The notes under the pieces: generated by a model
What the model was told of the DNA's origin: nothing
The model's input: the letters and a program-made list of their open reading frames with translations, nothing else
Database searches by the model: none
Translations under genes and position numbers: made by a program
Source of the DNA: Mustelus asterias
Taxonomy: Eukaryota
Direction of reading: 5' to 3'
Assembly: GCF_964213995.1 (NCBI RefSeq)
Contig: NC_135801.1
Span: forward strand, 11,222,001-11,286,000
DNA: 64,000 nt
Shown: positions 31,201 to 52,092 of the stretch, one piece after another
How positions within the stretch are numbered: the first letter of the stretch is position 1
Layout of the letters: each line of letters begins with the position of its first letter

Positions 31201-34200
31201 TCCTTAACAGCACTGTGAGTGTACCTACACCGCATGGACTGCAGGGGTTCAAAGGGGAGCTCACCACCACCTTGTCAAGGACAGTAAGAATGGGAAATGA
31301 ATGCTGGCCTAGCCAGCAATGCTCACATCCCTTGAAATGTATACATTTATAGATATAAAAAGATTCGCTATTAACTGATCACTCAGTGGTTTGAAAAGAC
31401 AATGCCAATGATTTCAGAAAGCAAGTGTGCAACAGTGTTTCTGCACTAATATTTGCATTTGCTTTGATTTCTTTAGGTGAAATTTGATGGCGAGCCAGGA
31501 ATGGACTTCGGAGCTGTAAGACAGGAGTTTTTCCTTTCTGTCTTCAAAGAATTGATTCGACCAGAATCCAAAATGTTTATTTATCGTCAGGATTTCAGAA
31601 ACATTTGGTTTCCCTCCAAGGTGAGCCCTTGTAACGTAACTTGCTTAAGAAAACAGTTTGTCGGTGGATGGAGATGGTACATGGAGGCACAGTGGTTTGC
31701 ACTGCTGCCTCACTGCGCCAGGGACCCGGGTTTGATTCCTGGCTTGGGTCACTGTCCGTGCGGAGTCTGCACGTTCTCCCCGCGTCTGCGTGGGTTTCCT
31801 CCGGGTGCTCCGGTTTCCTCCCACACTCCAAAGATGTGCGGTTTAGGTGGATTGGCAGTGCTAAATTCTCCCTCAGTGTACCCAAATAGGCGCCAGATTG
31901 TGGCGACCAAGGGATTTTCACAGTAACTTCACTTCAGTGTTGAGGTAAGCCTACTTGTGACTAATAAATTAACTTTAACTTTTTACTTTCATACTCCAGA
32001 TCTTGTAAAGTGATCTGAAAATATGATGTGGCTCCAAAGTTCCAATCACCCTCTAAACTGCAAAGGTTTCTCATTAAAAGTGTTCAGTTCGGAATATGTA
32101 AGCCTTTACTTAGTTATCAGATGATGTGGAGATGCTGGCGTTGGACTGGGGTGGCATCGTAAGAAGTCTCATATCACTAGGTTAAAGTCCAACAGGTTTA
32201 TTTGGAATCACGAACTTTCGGAGCGTCGCTCCACTGCTCCACTCACCTGATGAAAGAGCAGCGCTCCGAAAGCTTGTGATTCCAAATAAATCTGTTGGAC
32301 TTTAACCTGGTGTTGTGAGACTTCTTACTGTTACCTATCAGAGCTCAATCTTGTGACCGTAAAGAGACACAACTCTACCTTAGGAGAAGAATAATGCATC
32401 ATGCATTGTTTGGGCCTTATATCTTAGCGTATATCCACAAGAACTAGGAGCAGAAGTAGGCCATTCAGCCCCTCAAGCCTACTCCACCATTCGGTAAGTT
32501 TATGTCTTCCCTGACTGTGGCCTCAACTTCACTTTCCTGTCTAACCCCCCATAATTCTGACTCCCTTTTCAAACAAGAAACTATCCAACTGAGCCCTGAA
32601 TATATTCAATAACCCAGCCTCCCCTGCTATCTGGGGAAGAGAAGTTCCACAGACTAGAACACTCTGAGAGGAAAAAACTCTCCTCATCTCAGACTTCAGT
32701 GGGAGGCCCCTAATTTTTAAACTGTGTCCCCTACTTCGAGAATTTCCCACAAAGGAAAACAGCCTCTCGGCACCCACCCCTCAGAATTTTATCTACTTTA
32801 ATGAGATCACTTCTCCTTCCTCTAAATTGCAATCAGCCTGTTAAACCTTTCCTCATAAGACAACCCTGCCTCATTCCGGGATGAGGGGTGGTGGGGATCC
32901 CAACCATTCTCTGCTAATGCGATTATATCCTTTCTTAACTGCACCCAGTACTCCAGAGGTGATCTCACAACTGCAGGGGAGGCTGGGTCATTGAATATAT
33001 TCAGGGCTCAGTTGGATAGTTTCTTGATTGAAAAGGGAGTCAGGATTATCGGGGGGGGTCGGGGGCGGAGACAGGAAAGTGAAGTTGAGGCCACAATCAG
33101 GGAAGACATAAACTTACCGAATGGCGGCGTAGGCTTGAGGGGCTGAATGGCCTACTTCTGCTCCTAGTTCTTGTGGATATACGCTAAGATATAAGGCCCA
33201 TACAATGCATGATGCATTCTTTTTCTCCTAAGGTAGAGTTGTGTCTCTTTACGGTCACAAGATTGAACTCTGATAAGTAACAGTAAGAAGTTTCACAATA
33301 CCAGGTTAAAGTCCAACAGGTTTGTTTGGAATCACGAGCTTTCGTAGCGCTGCTCCTTCATCAGGTGAGTGGGGCAGCGGAGCGGCACACCGAAAGCTCG
33401 CAATTCCAAATAAACCTGTTGGACTTTAACCTGGTGTTATGAGACTTCTTACAACTGCAGCATACTTTCCCTACCTTATGCCCCACTCTACTTTAAAGTT
33501 TATTTACTAGCGTCACAGGTAAGCTTGCAATGAAGTTACTGTGAAAATCCCCTAGTCGCCACACTCTGGCACCTGTTCAGGTACACTGAGGGAGAATTTA
33601 GCATGGCCAACGCAGCTAGCCAGCACGTCTTTTGGAATGTGGGAGAAAGCTGGAGCACCCGGAGGAAACACAGGCAGACAGAGGGAGAGATGCAAACCCC
33701 GCACGGACAATGACCCAAGCCGAGAATCGAACCCAGGTCCCTGGCACTGTGAGACAGCAGTGCTCACCACTATGCCACCGTGCCGCCCCATTTACTTGTA
33801 GCAAATTTGAAGGTGATTTGTTATGGCTTCAACAAGGAACAGATTATTAATATAATGTATATACAGGAAAAGGATCTGGTAGAACTAATACACAAGTCTA
33901 CTCTTTTCTCCTCCCTGGCTCCAACTGAGGTTCCTCCCCGTCCCAGGACACGTGCCCTTGTTCCCAATTGGATTGGCTTCCGGCGCAGCCTCTTCATAGG
34001 GTCCAACTCGATCACGTGGCCCTCAAAGGACCTAAAGGTGCAACATTACCACACTACTTGTAATAATTGCCAGCATTTTGTTTGCCTAACTAGTCATTTG
34101 GTGTCGCTGTGTACTAACTAACTTCTTGTGGTTCATGTACCAGGACACCCAGATCTTTCTGTACCGTAGATTTCTGTAGTCTCTCTCCATTTAAATAACA

Positions 34201-40200: not shown

Positions 40201-43200
40201 GGAAGGAGTTTCTCCTTATTTATTCTGTCAGAATCTTTCAGGGCTTTGAACACCTCTGTCAAATCTCACCTTAACTTTCTCTACTCTAACAGAATAAGCC
40301 TAGTTTTTTCAGTCTCTCCAAGTAACTGAAGGCTTTTATTCTTGGTACCATTCTAGTAAATCACCTCTGTATCATCTCTAAGGCCTTCCTGCCTAAAGTG
40401 TGGTGCCAAAATTGCCCACAATATTCCAGCTGATCCCTGTTTTGTGAAGGTTTGACAGAATGTTTCCGTTTTCCTATTCTTGGCTTCTCTTTACAAAGCC
40501 AAGGACCCGCATATTGATCTAACAACCTTCTCAATTTGTCCTGCCAGTTTCAAAGTCTTGCGCACTTCCGAAAGACGTGCTGGTTAGGTGGATTGGCCAT
40601 GCTAAATTCTCCCTCAGTGTACCCGAACAGGCACCGGAGTGTGGCAACTAGGGGATTCTCACAGTAACTTCATTGCGGTGTGAATGTAAGCCTACTTGTG
40701 TCACAATAATAAATAAACTTTAAAACTTGCACCCTCAAGATTTTCTGATCCTGTGCCCCTTTGGAATTTAGCAGCAAATCTTGCAATGATTTTTACAACC
40801 GCTGGATCTCTATGCATTTTACAGTCAATGAAGTACTTTTGAAAAAGTAGTCACAGTTGTTACGTACAAAATGACCTTTAGTTTATCTTGCCTCTCCTGA
40901 TTCTTCCAATGCCAAGGAATCTTGGTGTTGTCAGAGTCAATCACTGTTAGCTGAAGAACAATGATTTACGCTCAAGGCTCGGAAGAAATTGTAACTAATT
41001 ATTTTTGATGTAGGTTTGCTGGGATGAACAGGATGTCGAGCTCATTCCAAATGGCAGGAATCAGTTGCTGACTAACAAGAACAAGTAAGTTATAATTAAA
41101 CAATGGAGCTACGGTGAAGCCTCCATTCAGATGTTTTAGATCCATTCCTTTGTCTTTCCATCTCACACACCTCTCTTCCCCACTTCCAAAAAAGAGCCTC
41201 GCCTGTTCTTTTTTTCAATCTCAGCCTGAAAGCTATAAGCCCCAGTTTCTCAGAAGAAAGAAAAATCACATGTTTTACCTTCTGCAGATGTGATCTCCTG
41301 GTGTCAATTTGAATGCAGGAAGTGGTGTAGAACAGTGGTGGTGTCCCTGATGCTGGATCAGAAACTCTAGGTTCAAATCCCACACCGAGGGGGGTGATAA
41401 TATCCATACTAATAATCATGAAGAGGAATAATAGCTGTATTAATAACCGTGTCCAGTGGAAGGGTTAGAAGAGGCAAACTGAGTAGCAAAGGTTTAACTG
41501 CAAGGATGAGCATATCAGGACACCAAACTGTAAACTGTGAGTTTTAGATGGAAAGACAAAGGAAGACTGTCCCAATGACAGATGTGACCTTCAGATAAAT
41601 GTAGGGAGGAGGGCTCTATAGTGTGGGATTGTTTGTGTCTCAGGCTGGGAGAGGCCATTAAACCAGACATTTGGACATGGGAGGATTGATTGCGATCTAA
41701 AAACTCAGACGCAAGCTGGGAGGTCAAAAGATAGTGTGAACAATAGCCTCCTAATTCAATTAAGCCTCACACTGATTGGATATTATAATTAAGTAGACGT
41801 GCAATGATTGTGATTGGTTTTAATATCTATCTTACGCATGATGTAACCTTAATCAATAGTTGTGAATGGATAGAGATAACGCCGATACCTTGATTGGTAT
41901 ATGGTAATTACTTGTAATCAAATTTGAAACTATATCTGCTTGTGCATTCCTGAATTCTTGTACTCCGGCTTAGTTACAGACTGTGACCTGTGACTTTCCA
42001 GAATCCTCACTATAGCTTGCATTAAAACAGCTGTTTTAGAGAACTCTGACTTGGTCTGGTTACTTGAAGGGAAAAAAGTTGTGATCGATTAAAAGGCTGA
42101 ACATCAAAGCCCATAACACATACAATGTTTTGTTGGGTACAGAAGGAGTCTACACGATGTAGTTTGATGAGTTGATACAGCATGGGAACCCTTCCCACCA
42201 TCCACCAAAGAGGATAAATGTGTGTGTGTGTGAAGATGCGCTTTAAATTAACATGAACTCTGAGGGCAGTTTCTTCTCTTGGCTCTGGTATTTTCTTTGT
42301 TCTTTTGTCTCTCTCAGAAGGTTGTGTGGCTGATCGGGGTTAGGTAGTATCTAGTTATGATGGTGCACACATCAGGAGGCAGGTTTGATGGAGCTGCTGG
42401 TCTCTACTGCCCAATACTTGTAATGTTGCACACATCTTCTCTACCAGGTTTTGAGTGGCTTCTACCCAGCCAGGGCTGAAATTCCAGCCTACTCCATGCT
42501 TCCCTGAATGCTTGCCCTCCAGCCCTGGCCAATGTTCGGTTCATGGTCGCATGCACGACCTACAGCAGAGTTGCACTTAGATAAGGCCTGTTTTGGGTTG
42601 GCCTTCCATGTCAGCAGAGCCACACCACCAATGTACTGCCCATTATTAGCAGAGGTCAAAGGTCGCCTAAGCTCCATAGTAACATTATCATCGAACTCCT
42701 TTGGCATCTGGCTGTTCTCATCTGGTTATATTTTAATATTGCTTTCTTCTTACAATCAAAGGGAGGAATACGTGAGGGCCTATGTGAATTATGTTTTCAC
42801 TGCGTCAGTCAAGGAACCCTTCAATGAGTTTCGAAGAGGATTCTACAAGGTTTGCGACAAGGAACTACTGAAGTTCTTCCAACCTCAAGAACTGATGGAC
42901 ATATTGATTGGAAATGACGACTATGACTGGAAAGTTCTGGAACAGGTTTGCAAGCCATTTACATTGTGTGCAGATATGGCGCCACCGAGTATCTAACTCT
43001 CTGGGAGGGGGTCATTATACTAATAAAAGGTAATATAGTGGGCAACTTGCATATAGCAAGAATAAACTGGCCTGGGAAAGATGCTCTGTTGGAGAGTCAG
43101 TGCAGACTCGATGGGCCAAATGGCCTCCTCCTGCACTGGCGGAATTCTATGAATAAACTTGCTCAGCATTAATGTGAGCATTTGGGTACCCGAAATACAA

Positions 43201-46200
43201 ACTTATCTTGAATAAACTGGGATTGTTCTCCCTGGAAAAATGGAGGCTGAGGGATGACCTGATAGAAGTTTATAAAATTATGAGGGGTATGGATAGGGTG
43301 AACAGTTGCAAGCTTTTTCCCAGGGCAGAAATGACAATTACAAGGGGGCACAAGTTCAAGGTAAGGGGGGAAAGGTTCAGTGGAGATGTGCGGGGGAAGC
43401 GTTTTGCACAGAGGGTGGTGGGGGCCTGGAATGCACTGCCAAGTGAGGTGGTTGAGGCAGATACATTAGCCACATTTAAGATTTATCTTGATAGGCATAT
43501 GAACAAATGGGGAATAGAGGGATATGAGTCCCTGGTTAGATAGGTAAGTGTGAGCGGCACAGGCTTGGAGGGCCGAAGGGCCTGTTCTTGTGTTGCACTG
43601 TTCTTTCTTCTTTGTATAGAAAGACTCCACACACAACGAGAGATAAAAACACCGAGGGGGCACCATTATCTTAGAAAAAGTACCAGTGAAACACGATCAG
43701 TTTATAATATATAGAGAGTGCAGACTGGTCTTCTCTCCTCTGTGAACACCACAGATTATTCAGGAATCAGGCGGCGCAGTGGTTAGCACTGCTGCTTCAC
43801 AGCAACAGGGACCCGGGTTCGATTCCAGCCTTGGGTGACTGTCTGTGTGGAGTTTGCACGTTCTCCCCATTTCCTTGTGGGTTTCCTCCGGGTACTCTGG
43901 TTTCCTCCCACACTCCAAAGATGTGCAGGTTAGTTGGACTGACCATGATAAATTGCCCCTTAGTGTCCAAAGATGTGTGGGTTAGCTGGATTAGCGAGGT
44001 AACTGCATGGGGTTATGTGGTGGGGAGGGGGGTTGGCCTGGGAAAGGTGCTCTGTTGGAGAGTCAGTGCAGACTCGATGGGCCAAATGGCCTCCTTCTGC
44101 ACTGTCGGGATTCTATGAATAAACTTGCTTAGCATTAATGTGAGGATTTGGGGAATTGAAATACAAACTTATCTTGAAATTGTATTATATTGTTTGTGAA
44201 ATGCTAACGATGTTTATGTAACAGAATACCACATATGAAGGCATCTACAGCAGATCACATCCAACCATTAAGATGTTCTGGAAAGTATTCCATGAGCTAC
44301 TTTTGGATGAGAAGAAAAGATTCCTCTGTAAGTATCTCACTGAGCAATGGTTATGTCACAAAATTAAGATGGAATTCAGTTATATCCCATATGAGCTTCC
44401 AGAGGGAACCTCCCCTCCCCCAAAGGGTCTCATAAACTCATTGGGCGGTGGAGGCGGTGGGGTCTTGCTCATTCAAGAGCCTCAATTGGCAGCAGGGTAA
44501 GGAGGCCATCCATATGTTTTCCTGCCATGTATTTAATCCGGGTGGAGGAGGCCTTGTGGCGTAGCGCCCTTCCCACTGGACCTGAAGCTCGGGGTTCGAG
44601 TCCAGTGCCAGGACTTGTTGGTCACGGAAGGAATGTTCAATATGGTTCAACATTGATTCAACAAGGCTGATAGCCAACTCTGGAATCCTTCCACCACTTC
44701 CCCCACTATTCCCCAAAGGATACAAAACAGTATTGGTGTGAAGATATGCCAACTATAATAATTGGAATAGAGACAGGAAGGATTGAACATTTCCCTGCCA
44801 CCGTACTAAATTTCACCCATAGAGTCATTATGGCATAAAAGCAGGCCATTTGGCTCATCGAGTCCACACCAAATCCAGTCTGTCCCATTCCCCCACTCCA
44901 TTTCCATCGCTCTAAGTTTATTTCCCTTGTGTGCCCATCCAATTTCCTGTGAAATCATTGACTGCCTCCGCTTCTACCCTGATAGGTAGCATGTTCCAGA
45001 CCCATACCTGATTTCGTACACTTCTCCTTTAGCGGCCGTGCTTTCAACGTAGGACATGGGTGTTGCTGGTTAGCCAGCATTTATTGCCCATCCCCCTAAT
45101 TGTCCTTGAACTGAGTGGCTTGCTAGACCATTTCAGAGGGCAGCTAAGAGTCAATCACATTGCTGTGGCTCTGGAGTCACATGTAGGCCAGACCGGGTAA
45201 GGACGGCAGATTTCCTTCCCTAAAGGACATTAGTGAACCAGATGGGTTTTCCCAACAATCAACAATGATTTTAGATCATCAGTAGATTCTTAATTCCAGA
45301 TATTTTTTATTGAATTCAAATCCCATCTGCCGTGGTGGGATTCGAACCCAGGTCCCCAGAACATTAGCTGAATTTCTGAATTAATAGTCTAGCGATAATA
45401 CCACTAGGCCATCACCTCCCCCTTATGAAAGTATGATGTAAAGATGTCGGCGTTGGACAGGGGTGGGCACAGTAAGAAGTCTCACAACACCAGGTTAAAG
45501 TCCAACAGGTTTATTTGGAATCACAAGCTTTCGGAGTGCTGCTCCTTCATCAGGTGAGTGGAAAGGTAGGTTTCACAAACATAAGACCATAAGACCATAA
45601 GACATAGGAGCGGAAGTAAGGCCATTCGGCCCATCGAGTCCACTCCACCATTCAATCATGGTTGATTTCAACTCCATGGCATATATAGACAAAGACAAGT
45701 TTGAAGACTTGCATTCCAACCATTATGTTGCAATTGTGTCTTTTTCTATATATGCCGTGTTTGTGAAACCTATCGCTCCACTCACCTGATGAAGGGGCAG
45801 TGCTCCTAAAGCTCATGATTCCAAATAAACTTGTTGAACTTTAACCTGGTGTTGTGAGACTTCTTATTATGAAAGTATGTCAAACAAAATTATGAAAAGA
45901 TGTGGTTGGGCAGATAGGAACAAACTGGGTTTATAAGATCATAAATGCCTTAACATTTACGGGTTAATTTAGATATCTCAGGCTTGAAGTTAGGTTAGGC
46001 ATGAAGTTTTTGTTCTGGATGTTAATGAAACAGTTCAGAATACTGTCTTTTAGGAATCATTCATCTTGCGATATGGTAGTTGGTGCTTTGCATAAGGAGC
46101 GGGGACACTGGGTAGGAAAGCATTTAGTCATTATGTTATGGCCATTCTGGTGAGGGACAGGTTTGACGGGCCAATTCGTCTTTTCCTGCCTGCCATCTTT

Positions 46201-46495
46201 GCTTGCTGACATGTCAGAACAGCTGCGTACATAAAATGTCATTGATATGTTTCTTACAGATAGTGCAATGTAAACTCTTTTCTCAGCGTTTCTCACAGGA
46301 ACTGATCGCATTCCGGTGTTCGGGATGGCATGTGTCAAGATAGGTATTGTCCCGAGTCAGCTGACTGAAGACAATTACCCGGAAGCAAACGTATGCTTTA
46401 GTATCCTGAGCCTCCCTGAATACACCAGCACTGAAAACCTCAAAACGAAGCTGGTGACAGCTATTTTCACGGAGAAAAGATTTGACAAATTGTGA
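1176..46495 (+). CDS. HERC6: Gene 1 (5'-partial, spliced, 21 exons): small HERC E3 ligase, HERC5/HERC6-like (RCC1-like domain + HECT)
   Basis: Exons 1176-1249,1338-1559,2977-3068,5888-6015,10998-11104,14193-14257,15812-15939,17940-17999,19757-19862,23735-23924,24553-24737,24854-24967,28379-28492,30302-30472,31477-31620,35726-35892,39196-39253,41014-41084,42762-42945,44225-44327,46287-46495. All GT-AG, phases compatible, 2692 nt, no internal stop. Motifs [42 protein letters not shown] resemble HERC5/6 more than HERC3/4 (from memory). Exact orthology is uncertain. Confidence 0.88.
1338..1559 (+). CDS. Gene 1 exon (RCC1 repeats)
   Basis: 222 nt; [18 protein letters not shown]...[33 protein letters not shown]; cag|...|gtaag. 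Confidence 0.95.
2977..3068 (+). CDS. Gene 1 exon (RCC1 repeat)
   Basis: 92 nt; ...[17 protein letters not shown]|gt. Confidence 0.92.
3222..3640 (-). mobile_element. HE1-type SINE (CR1 tail)
   Basis: Reverse complement of the HE1 pattern. Confidence 0.85.
4291..4632 (+). mobile_element. HE1-type SINE (CR1 tail)
   Basis: Full length, (ttctatga)n tail. Confidence 0.9.
4988..5490 (-). mobile_element. CR1 LINE 3' fragment (degenerate)
   Basis: Similar to the other CR1 3' ends. Confidence 0.7.
5888..6015 (+). CDS. Gene 1 exon (RCC1 repeat)
   Basis: [18 protein letters not shown]...VSQIACG; gcag|...|gtgag. Confidence 0.92.
6320..7050 (-). mobile_element. CR1/HER1-like LINE 3' fragment
   Basis: ORF ...[20 protein letters not shown]...VVNLWNSLP plus microsatellite tail. 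Confidence 0.9.
7912..8258 (-). mobile_element. HE1-type SINE
   Basis: Full length. Confidence 0.88.
8778..9575 (-). mobile_element. CR1/HER1-like LINE 3' fragment
   Basis: 225-aa CR1 ORF2 C-terminus; (taagaaca)n tail. Confidence 0.9.
10607..10890 (+). mobile_element. HE1-type SINE (tail B)
   Basis: Head partly deleted. Confidence 0.85.
10998..11104 (+). CDS. Gene 1 exon (degenerate RCC1 repeat)
   Basis: [36 protein letters not shown]; ttag|...|gtaat. Confidence 0.85.
11243..11555 (+). mobile_element. DeuSINE-like element (tRNA head + Deu core); 3' part resumes at about 12938-13040
   Basis: ggttcgagtc B-box; gtgtcctggctaatatttatccct core. Confidence 0.7.
11768..12761 (-). mobile_element. 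CR1 LINE fragment (RT motifs [15 protein letters not shown]) nested in a + strand CR1 (11560-11767 / 12762-12930)
   Basis: ORFs 11962-12411 and 12428-12955; ACGTTA duplicated at the junctions. Confidence 0.88.
13850..14172 (+). mobile_element. CR1 LINE 3' fragment
   Basis: [13 protein letters not shown]; ctctatgact tail abutting an exon acceptor. Confidence 0.8.
14193..14257 (+). CDS. Gene 1 exon (end of RCC1-like domain)
   Basis: [22 protein letters not shown]; gcag|...|gtaat; phases fit both neighbours. Confidence 0.8.
14470..14770 (+). mobile_element. DeuSINE-like fragment
   Basis: aaaagatcccacggcactattt...ggggagttctcccc core. Confidence 0.7.
14811..15617 (+). mobile_element. Two tandem HE1-type SINEs (14811-15224, 15295-15617)
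   Basis: HE1 pattern match. Confidence 0.85.
15812..15939 (+). CDS. Gene 1 exon (spacer)
   Basis: [28 protein letters not shown]..., HERC-type DFRC..I.T...KW. Confidence 0.85.
16536..17113. mobile_element. HE1 (+, 16650-16938) nested in HE1 (-)
   Basis: Host sequence resumes after the insert. Confidence 0.85.
17563..17841 (+). mobile_element. HE1-type SINE (tail B)
   Basis: HE1 pattern match. Confidence 0.85.
17940..17999 (+). CDS. Gene 1 exon (spacer)
   Basis: 60 nt; [19 protein letters not shown]|gtgagt. Confidence 0.9.
18095..18570 (-). mobile_element. DeuSINE-like element carrying a foreign 85-bp insert
   Basis: Reverse complement of the Deu core on both sides of 18216-18300. Confidence 0.7.
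18216..18304 (+). pseudogene. Captured Ig C1-set (MHC class II beta2-like) coding fragment
   Basis: [29 protein letters not shown] matches the CxVxGFYPxxIxVTW signature. Confidence 0.7.
18775..19610 (-). mobile_element. CR1 LINE fragment interrupted by an HE1 SINE (19047-19352)
   Basis: [12 protein letters not shown] motif. Confidence 0.75.
19757..19862 (+). CDS. Gene 1 exon (spacer)
   Basis: ...[23 protein letters not shown]|gtaac. Confidence 0.88.
20256..20567 (-). mobile_element. HE1-type SINE
   Basis: HE1 pattern match. Confidence 0.85.
21310..21517 (-). mobile_element. Short solo LTR inserted in an L2 element
   Basis: TG...CA termini, 5-bp TSD CTTGC, minus-strand AATAAA at 21342-21347. 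Confidence 0.7.
21877..22160 (-). mobile_element. HE1-type SINE (tail B)
   Basis: HE1 pattern match. Confidence 0.85.
22682..23211 (-). mobile_element. CR1 LINE 3' fragment
   Basis: [11 protein letters not shown]...[15 protein letters not shown]. Confidence 0.85.
23735..23924 (+). CDS. Gene 1 exon (spacer)
   Basis: 190 nt; VASSL...[12 protein letters not shown]...KKTL|gtgag. Confidence 0.9.
24553..24737 (+). CDS. Gene 1 exon (spacer)
   Basis: [24 protein letters not shown]...LELVYN|gtaagt. Confidence 0.85.
24854..24967 (+). CDS. Gene 1 exon (spacer)
   Basis: [19 protein letters not shown]...QQIM|gtgagt. Confidence 0.87.
25120..25220 (+). repeat. G-rich minisatellite, about 16-bp unit (tgaggtggcagtgggc)
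   Basis: Three adjacent units plus degenerate copies. Confidence 0.7.
25405..25666. mobile_element. MITE-like element (similar ones at about 20783-20986, 22496-22635, 26159-26268, 34590-34707)
   Basis: Imperfect terminal inverted repeats gggtgcgatct / gatctcgccc. Confidence 0.45.
26480..26791 (-). mobile_element. HE1-type SINE
   Basis: HE1 pattern match. Confidence 0.85.
27338..27900 (-). mobile_element. Rex1/Babar-like LINE 3' fragment
   Basis: [13 protein letters not shown] motif and (atcaa)n tail; related tails at about 290-480 (+) and 57250-57400 (-). Confidence 0.65.
28379..28492 (+). CDS. Gene 1 exon (spacer)
   Basis: [38 protein letters not shown]|gtaaag. Confidence 0.87.
29741..30052 (-). 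mobile_element. HE1-type SINE
   Basis: HE1 pattern match. Confidence 0.85.
30302..30472 (+). CDS. Gene 1 exon (HECT N-terminal)
   Basis: ...[20 protein letters not shown]...DLKKELT|gtaaac. Confidence 0.9.
30775..31340 (+). mobile_element. LINE 3' fragment (CR1/L2-superfamily, second family)
   Basis: [18 protein letters not shown]-type frame; related copies at 37025-38130 (-) and 50780-51400 (+). Confidence 0.7.
31477..31620 (+). CDS. Gene 1 exon (HECT)
   Basis: [19 protein letters not shown]...IWFPSK|gtgag. Confidence 0.93.
31683..31985 (+). mobile_element. HE1-type SINE (tail B)
   Basis: HE1 pattern match. Confidence 0.85.
32121..32330. mobile_element. Penelope-like element remnant (inverted pseudo-LTR palindrome)
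   Basis: Arms gtaagaagtctc...ttcggagc and gctccgaaagc...gagacttcttac, with a hammerhead core. Confidence 0.65.
32243..32279 (+). ncRNA. Hammerhead ribozyme motif (stem II mismatch)
   Basis: TCAC-CTGATGA-A-AGAGC-AGC-GCTCC-GAAA-GC-TT-GTGA. Confidence 0.55.
33332..33368 (-). ncRNA. Hammerhead ribozyme motif (copy within the inverted duplication)
   Basis: Minus strand reads TCAC-CTGATGA-A-GGAGC-AGC-GCTAC-GAAA-GC-TC-GTGA. Confidence 0.55.
33490..33790 (-). mobile_element. HE1-type SINE (tail B)
   Basis: HE1 pattern match. Confidence 0.85.
34926..35440 (+). mobile_element. CR1 LINE 3' fragment
   Basis: [24 protein letters not shown]. Confidence 0.85.
35726..35892 (+). CDS. Gene 1 exon (HECT)
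   Basis: [14 protein letters not shown]...[25 protein letters not shown]|gtaagt. Confidence 0.93.
36186..36966 (+). mobile_element. Solo LTR (Gypsy-like)
   Basis: TGTGA...TCACA termini, 4-bp TSD CTAC on both sides, AATAAA at 36808. Confidence 0.8.
37025..38130 (-). mobile_element. LINE fragment (same family as 30775)
   Basis: [12 protein letters not shown]...[10 protein letters not shown] remnant. Confidence 0.75.
38165..38420 (+). mobile_element. CR1 LINE fragment
   Basis: [19 protein letters not shown]. Confidence 0.8.
38771..39070 (+). mobile_element. HE1-type SINE
   Basis: HE1 pattern match. Confidence 0.8.
39196..39253 (+). CDS. Gene 1 exon (HECT)
   Basis: [19 protein letters not shown]|gtgagt. 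Confidence 0.88.
41014..41084 (+). CDS. Gene 1 exon (HECT)
   Basis: [23 protein letters not shown]|gtaagt. Confidence 0.9.
41386..42118 (+). mobile_element. Probable solo LTR interrupting a tRNA-derived SINE
   Basis: Ends ...TAACA, imperfect TSD CACAC/CATAC, ATTAAA near 42021; the host SINE resumes afterwards. Confidence 0.45.
42762..42945 (+). CDS. Gene 1 exon (HECT)
   Basis: [12 protein letters not shown]...[10 protein letters not shown]...[23 protein letters not shown]|gt. Confidence 0.94.
43068..43212 (+). repeat. 145-bp direct copy of 44034-44178
   Basis: SINE tail plus unique flank duplicated. Confidence 0.85.
43210..43610 (+). mobile_element. CR1 LINE 3' fragment
   Basis: [22 protein letters not shown]...WNALP. 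Confidence 0.85.
43769..44118 (+). mobile_element. HE1-type SINE
   Basis: HE1 pattern match. Confidence 0.85.
44225..44327 (+). CDS. Gene 1 exon (HECT C-lobe)
   Basis: [34 protein letters not shown]|gtaagt. Confidence 0.93.
45055..45420 (-). mobile_element. tRNA-derived SINE, second family (other copies about 1720-2290, 3660-4020, 58848-59360)
   Basis: tRNA-like head gatggcctagtggt...ggttcgaatccc; tail shared with the 30775 LINE family. Confidence 0.65.
45442..45866. mobile_element. Penelope-like palindromic element with a nested CR1 tail (about 45581-45675)
   Basis: Same family as 32121; both arms carry hammerhead cores. Confidence 0.7.
45521..45557 (-). ncRNA. Minimal type I hammerhead ribozyme motif in a Penelope-like element
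   Basis: Minus strand reads TCAC-CTGATGA-A-GGAG-CAGCA-CTCC-GAAA-GC-TT-GTGA. Confidence 0.7.
46287..46495 (+). CDS. Gene 1 terminal exon (HECT C-lobe, catalytic Cys codon 46394-46396, stop TGA)
   Basis: [13 protein letters not shown]...[39 protein letters not shown]. Confidence 0.94.
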
Positions 46496-46799
46496 AGCAG
46501 TAAAACACTCAGAGGAACAAGAGCATTGCATCGCATTTGGACTGCAGTTCAACTTTTAACACTATCATCTCCAACTATTGCACCATCCTTGCTTATCACA
46601 GACACCCACCTGTACCAGGCAAAGGACACTGAGCACTTGCCCTTATCACAGCCACCAATTACTAAGGTGGGGCATAAACCATACTAACCGTGCTAGTTAT
46701 TTTGGACATTACAAGCAGCTTAGTTGGCACTTTATTAAAGTAGAACTCATTGCATTCCACTGAATTCAGGTGAAACTGATCAGAATGCGATGTATCTAT

Positions 46800-47387
46800 A
46801 GGAACTTAGGAAACATAGGAATTAGGAGCAGAAGTGGGCAAATTCAGCCCTTCCAGCCTGCTCCGCATTCAATCAGATCATGGCTGATCTCTCCCTGGTC
46901 TCAAATTCACCTGTGTCCCATATCCCCGATCCCTTTTTTAAATTAGAAATATATCTTATCTCCTTCTTGAAACCATTCAACAATTCAGACTCCACTGTGC
47001 TATGGGGCAGCGAGTTCCACAAATTCACCACCCTCTGTGCGAAGTAGTTCCTCCTCATCTCAGTGTTAAATCTACCGCCTCTCAACTATATCTGTGACCT
47101 CTTGTTCTAGATTGTCCCATAAGAGGGAACCTTTGGTCCACATTTACTTTATCAACTCCTTTTAGTATTTTATATATCTCGATCAGATCCCCTCTCATCC
47201 TAAACTCCAGCGAGTACAAGCCCAAACTGTTTAGTCTCTCCTCATACATCAACCCCTTCATCCCCGGAATCAATCTGGTGAACCTCCTCTGAACTGCCTC
47301 CTATGCCACCACATCCTTCCTCAAATAAGGAGACCAAAATTGGACACAATAATCCAGATGTGGTCCCACCAGCACCCTATACAATTG
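46800..47387 (-). mobile_element. CR1 LINE 3' fragment in the probable 3' UTR of gene 1
   Basis: [17 protein letters not shown]; VVNLWNSLP. Confidence 0.85.
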
Positions 47388-51934: not shown

Positions 51935-52092
51935 ATGATGTGGAGATGCCGGCATTGGACTGGGGTGAACACAGTAAGAAGTCTCACAACACCAGGTTAA
52001 AGTCCAACAGGTTTATTGGTATTAATGGTTAATGGTATTTGCTACCAAATAAACCTGTTGGACTTTAACCTGGTGTTGTGAGACTTCTTACT
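51935..52092. mobile_element. Penelope-like palindromic remnant
   Basis: Perfect 45-bp inverted arms at 51973-52017 and 52048-52092. Confidence 0.7.

Follow-up and report, generated by a model that had tools for sequence, protein, structure and literature searches.

With regard to the palindromic element lying in an intron of the shark Mustelus asterias, the main question is whether this ribozyme-bearing fold-back belongs to a mobile family of its own or was left behind by a larger retroelement. The window, i.e., the whole stretch of 64,000 nucleotides that was analysed, had been assigned in a preliminary description a Penelope-like fold-back with a near-intact hammerhead, taken as a member of a high-copy and possibly non-autonomous, retrozyme-like family. 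In our analysis, the unit is very probably a dead-on-arrival single insertion of an autonomous Penelope-like element, in which two 5'-truncated 3' ends stand head to head, and its hammerhead was inherited from the pLTR of the parent.

The fold-back unit comprises 431 bases (45436-45866) and is flanked by 13-bp direct repeats, the 13-mer occurring only twice in the 64-kb window, both times at a border of the unit (Table 1). The right end initially proposed (45866) was retained, but the start had to be moved from 45442 to 45436, at the 13-bp repeat. An inverted repeat of 114 nt (89%) links the arm segments 45468-45581 and 45758-45871, and the arms face outward when read in the element sense. The 5' truncation of the left arm falls about 50 nt ahead of the ribozyme core, and that of the right arm 82 nt ahead of it. 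The left arm finishes with the tail, which in a tandem copy extends as far as the ATG of the ORF; neither arm lies wholly within the other. Compared with the majority of 30 gap-free near copies, which were chosen by likeness to the left arm and bias the majority accordingly, the left arm shows 2/108 differences, both at CpG, and the right arm 10/108. The LINE stub inserted in the left arm is young. It matches two sampled copies at 93/93 positions; both of these are preceded by an RT C-terminus, a motif found upstream in 34 of the 50 matches to the stub. The stub ends in an 8-nt repeat tail, the tandem 8-mer occupying 45580-45603.

Table 1. Coordinates of the fold-back unit, its parts and the neighbouring host exon (positions in the window).
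Feature	Position	Strand	Remark
Left target-site duplication, 13 bp	45423..45435	.	identical 13-mer at 45867-45879
Left arm: 5'-truncated 3' end (pLTR) of Penelope-like element	45436..45698	-	LINE stub within
35-nt tail, between short and long 3' end	45436..45470	-	left arm
AATAAA	45510..45515	-	10 nt past predicted cut site
Minimal type I hammerhead motif	45521..45557	-	core intact, two CpG changes
CR1/L2-type LINE 3' stub, later insertion in left arm	45580..45677	-	edges +/- ~3 nt
Head-to-head junction	45699..45703	.	between arms
Right arm: 5'-truncated 3' end, stops at short (untailed) end	45704..45866	+	
Broken hammerhead motif	45782..45818	+	G12->T at 45807; stem I pair lost at 45815
Right target-site duplication, 13 bp	45867..45879	.	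second copy of left 13-mer
Last coding exon, HECT-domain E3 ligase gene (host, outside element)	46287..46495	+	Pfam HECT E 1.4e-15, 46289-46492

The near-intact minimal hammerhead reported on the minus strand was found as described. From 45557 to 45521, it reads TCAC (stem I), the CTGATGA core, an extra A, GGAG/CTCC (stem II), GAAA, GC, TT and GTGA, with C3 at 45553 and the predicted cut between 45525 and 45524. A descriptor of minimal type I hammerheads with a 4-bp stem I matched this motif alone in the 64-kb window, where 0.01 matches per window are expected from 100 order-2 Markov simulations. The Rfam search returned no hammerhead family match at E up to 10 in the region 44500-47000, which takes nothing from the reading as a minimal variant, because such variants are defined by descriptor. 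In the opposite arm, the change from GAAA to TAAA noticed earlier is present, and stem I is broken as well. The AAGCTT stem III with its CUU triplet, also put forward in the preliminary description, exists in the letters of this copy but does not characterise the family. Since H17 is a C in 27/30 of the gap-free near copies and the first base of the stem II 3' strand a G in 26/30, the CUU triplet and the 4-bp stem II of the window represent two CpG transitions; judging from these copies, the AAGCTT six-mer would be accidental and the conserved palindrome AGCT.

Folded alone, the left-arm motif adopts the structure as drawn; the monomer folding z-scores, from -0.5 to +0.35, are uninformative. 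The transcript of the whole unit is predicted to form a hairpin of -229 kcal/mol (z -18), in which the hammerhead stems have a predicted probability of 0, and the ribozyme of this copy is thus predicted to be locked in the long hairpin and unable to fold. The idea that the palindromic unit supplies its own dimer partner was abandoned: each strand of the fold-back carries one sense ribozyme only, and the motifs of the two arms, lying on opposite strands, are ruled out as partners. A double-hammerhead fold reaches -15.5 kcal/mol for the left arm, vs a predicted minimum of -21.9 kcal/mol, and -21.3 vs -30.3 kcal/mol for a majority-type copy. A hammerhead dimer can therefore be drawn, yet according to the folding model it would differ from the predicted minimum.

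HECT-like reading frames were recognised by eye upstream of the element (42508-42996 and 44222-44500), which sits in the intron preceding the last HECT exon. The host gene being on the plus strand, the broken motif is sense and the intact motif antisense to it. In this one case, and against a biased majority, the core is knocked out in the arm that is sense to the host gene, which departs from the majority at 10 positions, compared with 2 in the antisense arm. On the plus strand, the segment 45548-45556, i.e., the reverse strand of the 5' part of stem I, resembles a splice donor, CAG/GTGAG; each fold-back presents this donor-like sequence on both strands, here within a host intron. In other respects, a very abundant, SINE-like repeat with a tRNA-like head (by eye) occupies 45042-45422 on the minus strand, and the element landed at its edge. 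A contig of another organism spans 45840-46438, but has just 27 letters within the element, fewer than the 31 that the comparison requires, and gives no more than a hint of a shared insertion.

The population of fold-backs was surveyed in 175 evenly spaced 10-kb stretches (1.75 Mb) of contigs C1-C25, taken in two batches, and five additional chosen stretches were left out of the sample counts. The survey yielded 175 arms in 77/175 stretches, that is, about 100 arms per Mb (79-122, bootstrap), in agreement with the high copy number first supposed; the family makes up about 2.6% of the sampled bases, and the extrapolated genome total is about 370,000 arms. Neighbouring arms within 300 nt are head-to-head in 56 cases, tail-to-tail in 4 and direct in 6. 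Both ends were classifiable in 41/56 head-to-head pairs (15/56 not), and all 41 have distinct junctions; a fixed palindromic MITE-like unit is ruled out by these unique junctions. Furthermore, each of the 41 pairs combines a tailed with an untailed end (20/20 in the first batch and 21/21 in the second; P ~1e-6 per batch against 50:50). Exceptions to this one-tail rule came from search-picked loci, 18/21 of which follow it (two are tailed-tailed and one untailed-untailed), and from the window (3/4). Target-site repeats, mostly of 12-13 bp, border 34/41 pairs, compared with 0/242 flank-swapped controls of the first batch.

Arm length varies without a break up to arms that extend into the ORF (40/154); the other 114/154 carry none of it. 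In 15/41 pairs, the arms are non-nested, the untailed arm extending at least 20 nt further 5' and the tailed arm further 3', and hence neither is a copy of the other. Both arms belong to one subfamily in 19/22 pairs (shuffled mean 4.3); the class differs in 3/22, one of them by a 1-nt indel, and a single-RNA model leaves these mixed pairs unexplained. At the loci L102 and L134, the arms of the pair come from different subfamilies, which would imply two templates per insertion or a later conversion. Arm 5' ends cluster at -14..-3 from C3 (31/154, a hazard about 10x that of the flanks); near the cut site, any excess is weak (13/154 starts at +22..+33, not aligned on one base), and the 154 starts, tested against the predicted cut, did not line up with it. 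Head-to-tail arrays of a short fixed unit were not seen in 1.75 Mb, which contain only 6 same-strand neighbours, two of these being partial tandems that reach the ORF.

Other loci of the family occur in the window. An earlier fold-back at 32121-32331 is repeated in inverted orientation, together with about 295 nt of its flank, at 32977-33450 (92% over 480 nt). This copy terminates precisely at the short 3' end of the family and is flanked by a 10-bp direct repeat found only there. From these letters, 32977-33450 looks like a dead fold-back recopied in trans from a read-through transcript. The fourth locus, 51935-52092, is a tailed and untailed fold-back too short for the ribozyme, at which a target-site repeat was not found.

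The parent element was sought in the same genome, as the preliminary description had advised, and the Penelope-like origin of the fold-back was confirmed. A genome search gave 41 matches among the 40 scored of 554 candidates. When near copies were followed upstream, the C-terminus of a GIY-YIG endonuclease appeared about 215 nt ahead of the core, and RT beyond it. Pfam recognises RVT_1 (E 1.4e-09) and GIY-YIG (E 0.00068, below the curated cut-off), the frame of L173 runs from RT through endonuclease in a single ORF, and homologous proteins carry PF00078 and PF01541. The parent layout is assembled from partial loci. At locus L242, endonuclease frame, 3' region, ribozyme, tail and ATG follow one another in a head-to-tail tandem, with C3 at 803, the short end at 895 and the ATG at 933; the frame is open to the stretch end, and L242 may be part of an intact tandem. 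Partial tandems are present in L102 and L126. In the parent, some 130 nt separate C3 from the ATG, which is located at the tail end. Long fold-backs, with arms of up to 1.5-1.9 kb containing RT and endonuclease, have a layout like that of the short ones, and 3/5 long loci are fold-backs with ORF-bearing arms.

The translations show ADKGG (the DKG motif), a CCHH motif (YLIRCKKGC..WYIGE..EH..EHF) with two cysteines between GIY and YIG, and an RT-endonuclease linker CHSNLCKTC, i.e., Cx4CxxC. In the excerpts of PMC8557442 used here, DKG and a CCHH motif with two cysteines are traits of EN+ Penelope-like elements, and a CX2-5CxxC linker one of Neptune or Nematis. These protein motifs point to a parent belonging to the Neptune or Nematis clade, Neptune appearing the likelier from the vertebrate distribution. 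Among named proteins, the nearest relatives are uncharacterised ones from sharks (90-95% in Mustelus asterias, about 80-85% in Heptranchias and Scyliorhinus), in line with the shark host deduced from the letters of the window, and the next ones are found in turtles and alligator (40-47%). Copies of the RT-proximal segment with 97-99% identity are numerous, which indicates a young subfamily that may have been active recently.

Variation across the family bears on the identity of the ribozyme. A looser hammerhead descriptor gave 69 matches in 1.75 Mb, vs 0-2 in three simulations, and 63/69 were assigned to the same Penelope-like family on reading the list by eye. Minimal hammerheads with other stems and a CG-type spacer were seen at L226:8151 (+), L171:6704 (+) and L118:2756 (+), and probably represent other Penelope-like families of the same genome. 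Arms were parsed without an integrity requirement (98/99), with fuzzy anchors that did include core letters, and stem I was counted by this parsing rather than from the MAFFT alignment, in which the columns of the 3' strand differ by subfamily. Across the 98 parsed arms, N7 occurs in four states, H17 as A, C or U (G in 1/98), and the AGCT palindrome is nearly invariant. Stem I, which family-wide retains three pairs only, reads CAC/GTG in 58/98 arms and CAT/ATG in 23/98. Pairing in stem II reaches 93%, and double-change cells number 8 vs 2.4 in shuffled data; the count of stem II pairs with double changes shows no excess over shuffles (113 of 500). The core is intact in 71/98 arms, 54 of the 98 having the stems and the palindrome as well, and core losses are mostly G->A at CpG. 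The covariation that the preliminary description had named as a check is therefore present, and it reflects a few subfamily events and not independent ones. The hammerhead identity is supported by this family variation, namely, the compensatory stem changes, the free N7 and the H17 rule. Variation confined to the hammerhead-free positions (N7, H17 and loop II), with core, AGCT and stems kept, fits selection for cleavage in master copies.

The anatomy of the unit, the parent with its RT, C-terminal GIY-YIG and tandem pLTR, the unique junctions, the target-site repeats and the tailed and untailed ends are directly established, and the fold-back was likely built anew at insertion. The element protein would cut the target with a stagger, and reverse transcription would be primed from both 3' overhangs, each at its own RNA site: the distal site would give the tailed end and the proximal site the untailed end. 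The template RNA would usually be of one subfamily, and the two unfinished cDNAs would be joined head to head, the LINE stub and CpG decay arriving afterwards. The hammerhead, for its part, would act as a dimer on tandem transcripts like that of L242, and not in fold-backs. In L1 twin priming, both target 3' ends also prime cDNA and an inversion within the TSD results; however, the L1 pieces cover different parts of the RNA, whereas the shark arms copy one 3' segment from two fixed sites 35 nt apart.

The retrozyme-like alternative holds that the palindromic unit constitutes a separate non-autonomous family, transcribed, self-cleaving, perhaps circular, and copied as a unit by Penelope-like enzymes. 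Such a family would explain why most arms lack an ORF and why the window segment 32977-33450 resembles a fold-back recopied in trans with its flank, and the part of the preprint 10.64898/2026.07.22.740005 used here derives animal retrozymes from pLTRs and includes one chondrichthyan. Nevertheless, we consider it highly improbable, given junctions that differ in every classifiable pair, arm lengths continuous into the ORF, the lack of short fixed-unit head-to-tail arrays in the sample and a single, predictedly buried sense ribozyme per strand; the autonomous parent and the long fold-backs sharing the layout of the short ones likewise led us to drop the distinct family initially suggested. With regard to occasional non-autonomous mobilisation of fold-backs, one window locus suggests one recopying in trans. 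Self-priming, proposed in the portion of PMC3846280 available, keeps the same parent, and one cDNA or antisense template would fold back so that the second arm copies the first. It accords with the shared subfamily of most pairs, with the correlation between the 5' ends of paired arms (Spearman 0.60; 19/41 within 20 nt) and with the short palindromes at some junctions, but the non-nested arms, in the window's unit as in 15/41 pairs, the few pairs mixing subfamilies and the target-site repeats closing both ends make it decidedly unlikely.

Another alternative concerns the hammerhead itself, which could survive as a structural relic, or serve as a landmark for protein binding or transcription, without being cleaved in transposition. 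The clustering of 5' ends at -14..-3 from C3, away from the cut site, and the difference between the dimer fold and the predicted minimum are compatible with this, as are two results on the anole element in the excerpts of PMC11167929 used here, where ribozyme mutants had no effect on in vitro insertion and none of the RNA reads had its end at the cut site. Across subfamilies, however, only hammerhead-free positions vary and core, AGCT and stems hold, so we regard this reading as unlikely. The origin of the unit by a single insertion of the autonomous element, with two separately primed arms, remains the preferred explanation.

The fold-back is a known sort of Penelope-like insertion. In the excerpts of the cited papers on which these comparisons draw, Penelope-like elements leave inverted 5'-truncated copies, a one-ended tail of 30-40 bp and, in rotifers, TSDs of 8-10 bp (PMC8557442, PMC3846280). 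The shark family shares with canonical EN+ insertions the RT and GIY-YIG ORF, the pLTR, partial tandems, an inverted 5'-truncated neighbour, the one-end tail and the TSD; it differs in that its insertions are mostly tiny (both arms <200 nt), that its copy number is very high at about 100 arms per Mb, that its TSDs are mostly 12-13 bp instead of the 8-10 bp of the rotifer cases, and that the one-tail rule can be counted in it. Similarly, the minimal type I hammerheads of metazoan PLEs, as presented in the part of PMC4209133 used, have a short helix I, an extra nucleotide after A9, G10.1-C11.1 and a palindromic 15.2-16.2, and occur as single dispersed copies or opposite-strand pairs 100-700 bp apart, as here, but the stem I of the present family has only 3 bp and its stem II 5-6 bp, and sharks are not named in that part.

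The anole PLE protein PAc cuts and extends both strands, and it initiates RT at two internal sites, by which the tail is defined (PMC11167929, in part). Poseidon PAc of Anolis carolinensis thus resembles the shark element in its two internal RT starts, the cutting and extension of both strands and the pLTR hammerhead. In the same excerpts, however, the PAc ATG lies inside the ribozyme and the start sites are at least 111 nt inside the ORF, whereas the shark ATG follows C3 by about 130 nt; the shark protein also has the Cx4CxxC linker, which Penelope/Poseidon lack. Animal non-LTR retrozymes, in the portions of PMC7229834 and bioRxiv 10.64898/2026.07.22.740005 considered, have in common with the shark unit the type I hammerhead, the non-coding short copies and the link to PLE pLTRs. 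They are recognised as head-to-tail tandems of a fixed short hammerhead unit, in arrays giving circular RNA, whereas the shark fold-backs are not such tandems, their units being head to head, variable in length and continuous with the parent ORF. The literature search, outside of which lay supplements, Repbase and most subscription papers, returned no description of the shark family or of a counted one-tail rule; shark motifs may stand in the supplements of PMC4209133 or of the preprint 10.64898/2026.07.22.740005.

A single unit such as this one is ordinary, being one of roughly 370,000 arms of one retroelement family, and its value lies in the data that the family provides. About 130,000 motif-intact minimal hammerheads, as an order of magnitude, are implied in one shark genome, most of them predicted to do no harm, being either single or hidden in hairpins. 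The steps of Penelope-like integration that follow priming are called unvalidated in the portion of PMC11167929 used here, and the family offers countable constraints, namely, a stagger of 12-13 nt, a single start site for each end, arms that are not nested and a shared subfamily. We can tentatively propose, with less than even confidence, that shark fold-backs are a fossil record of Penelope-like integration, in which one complex may prime both 12-13 nt overhangs with one RNA start site per end, most short arms may result from run-off at a transcript 5' end immediately preceding the ribozyme, and completed fold-backs may, together with their flank, be recopied in trans, which would open a route to non-autonomous elements.
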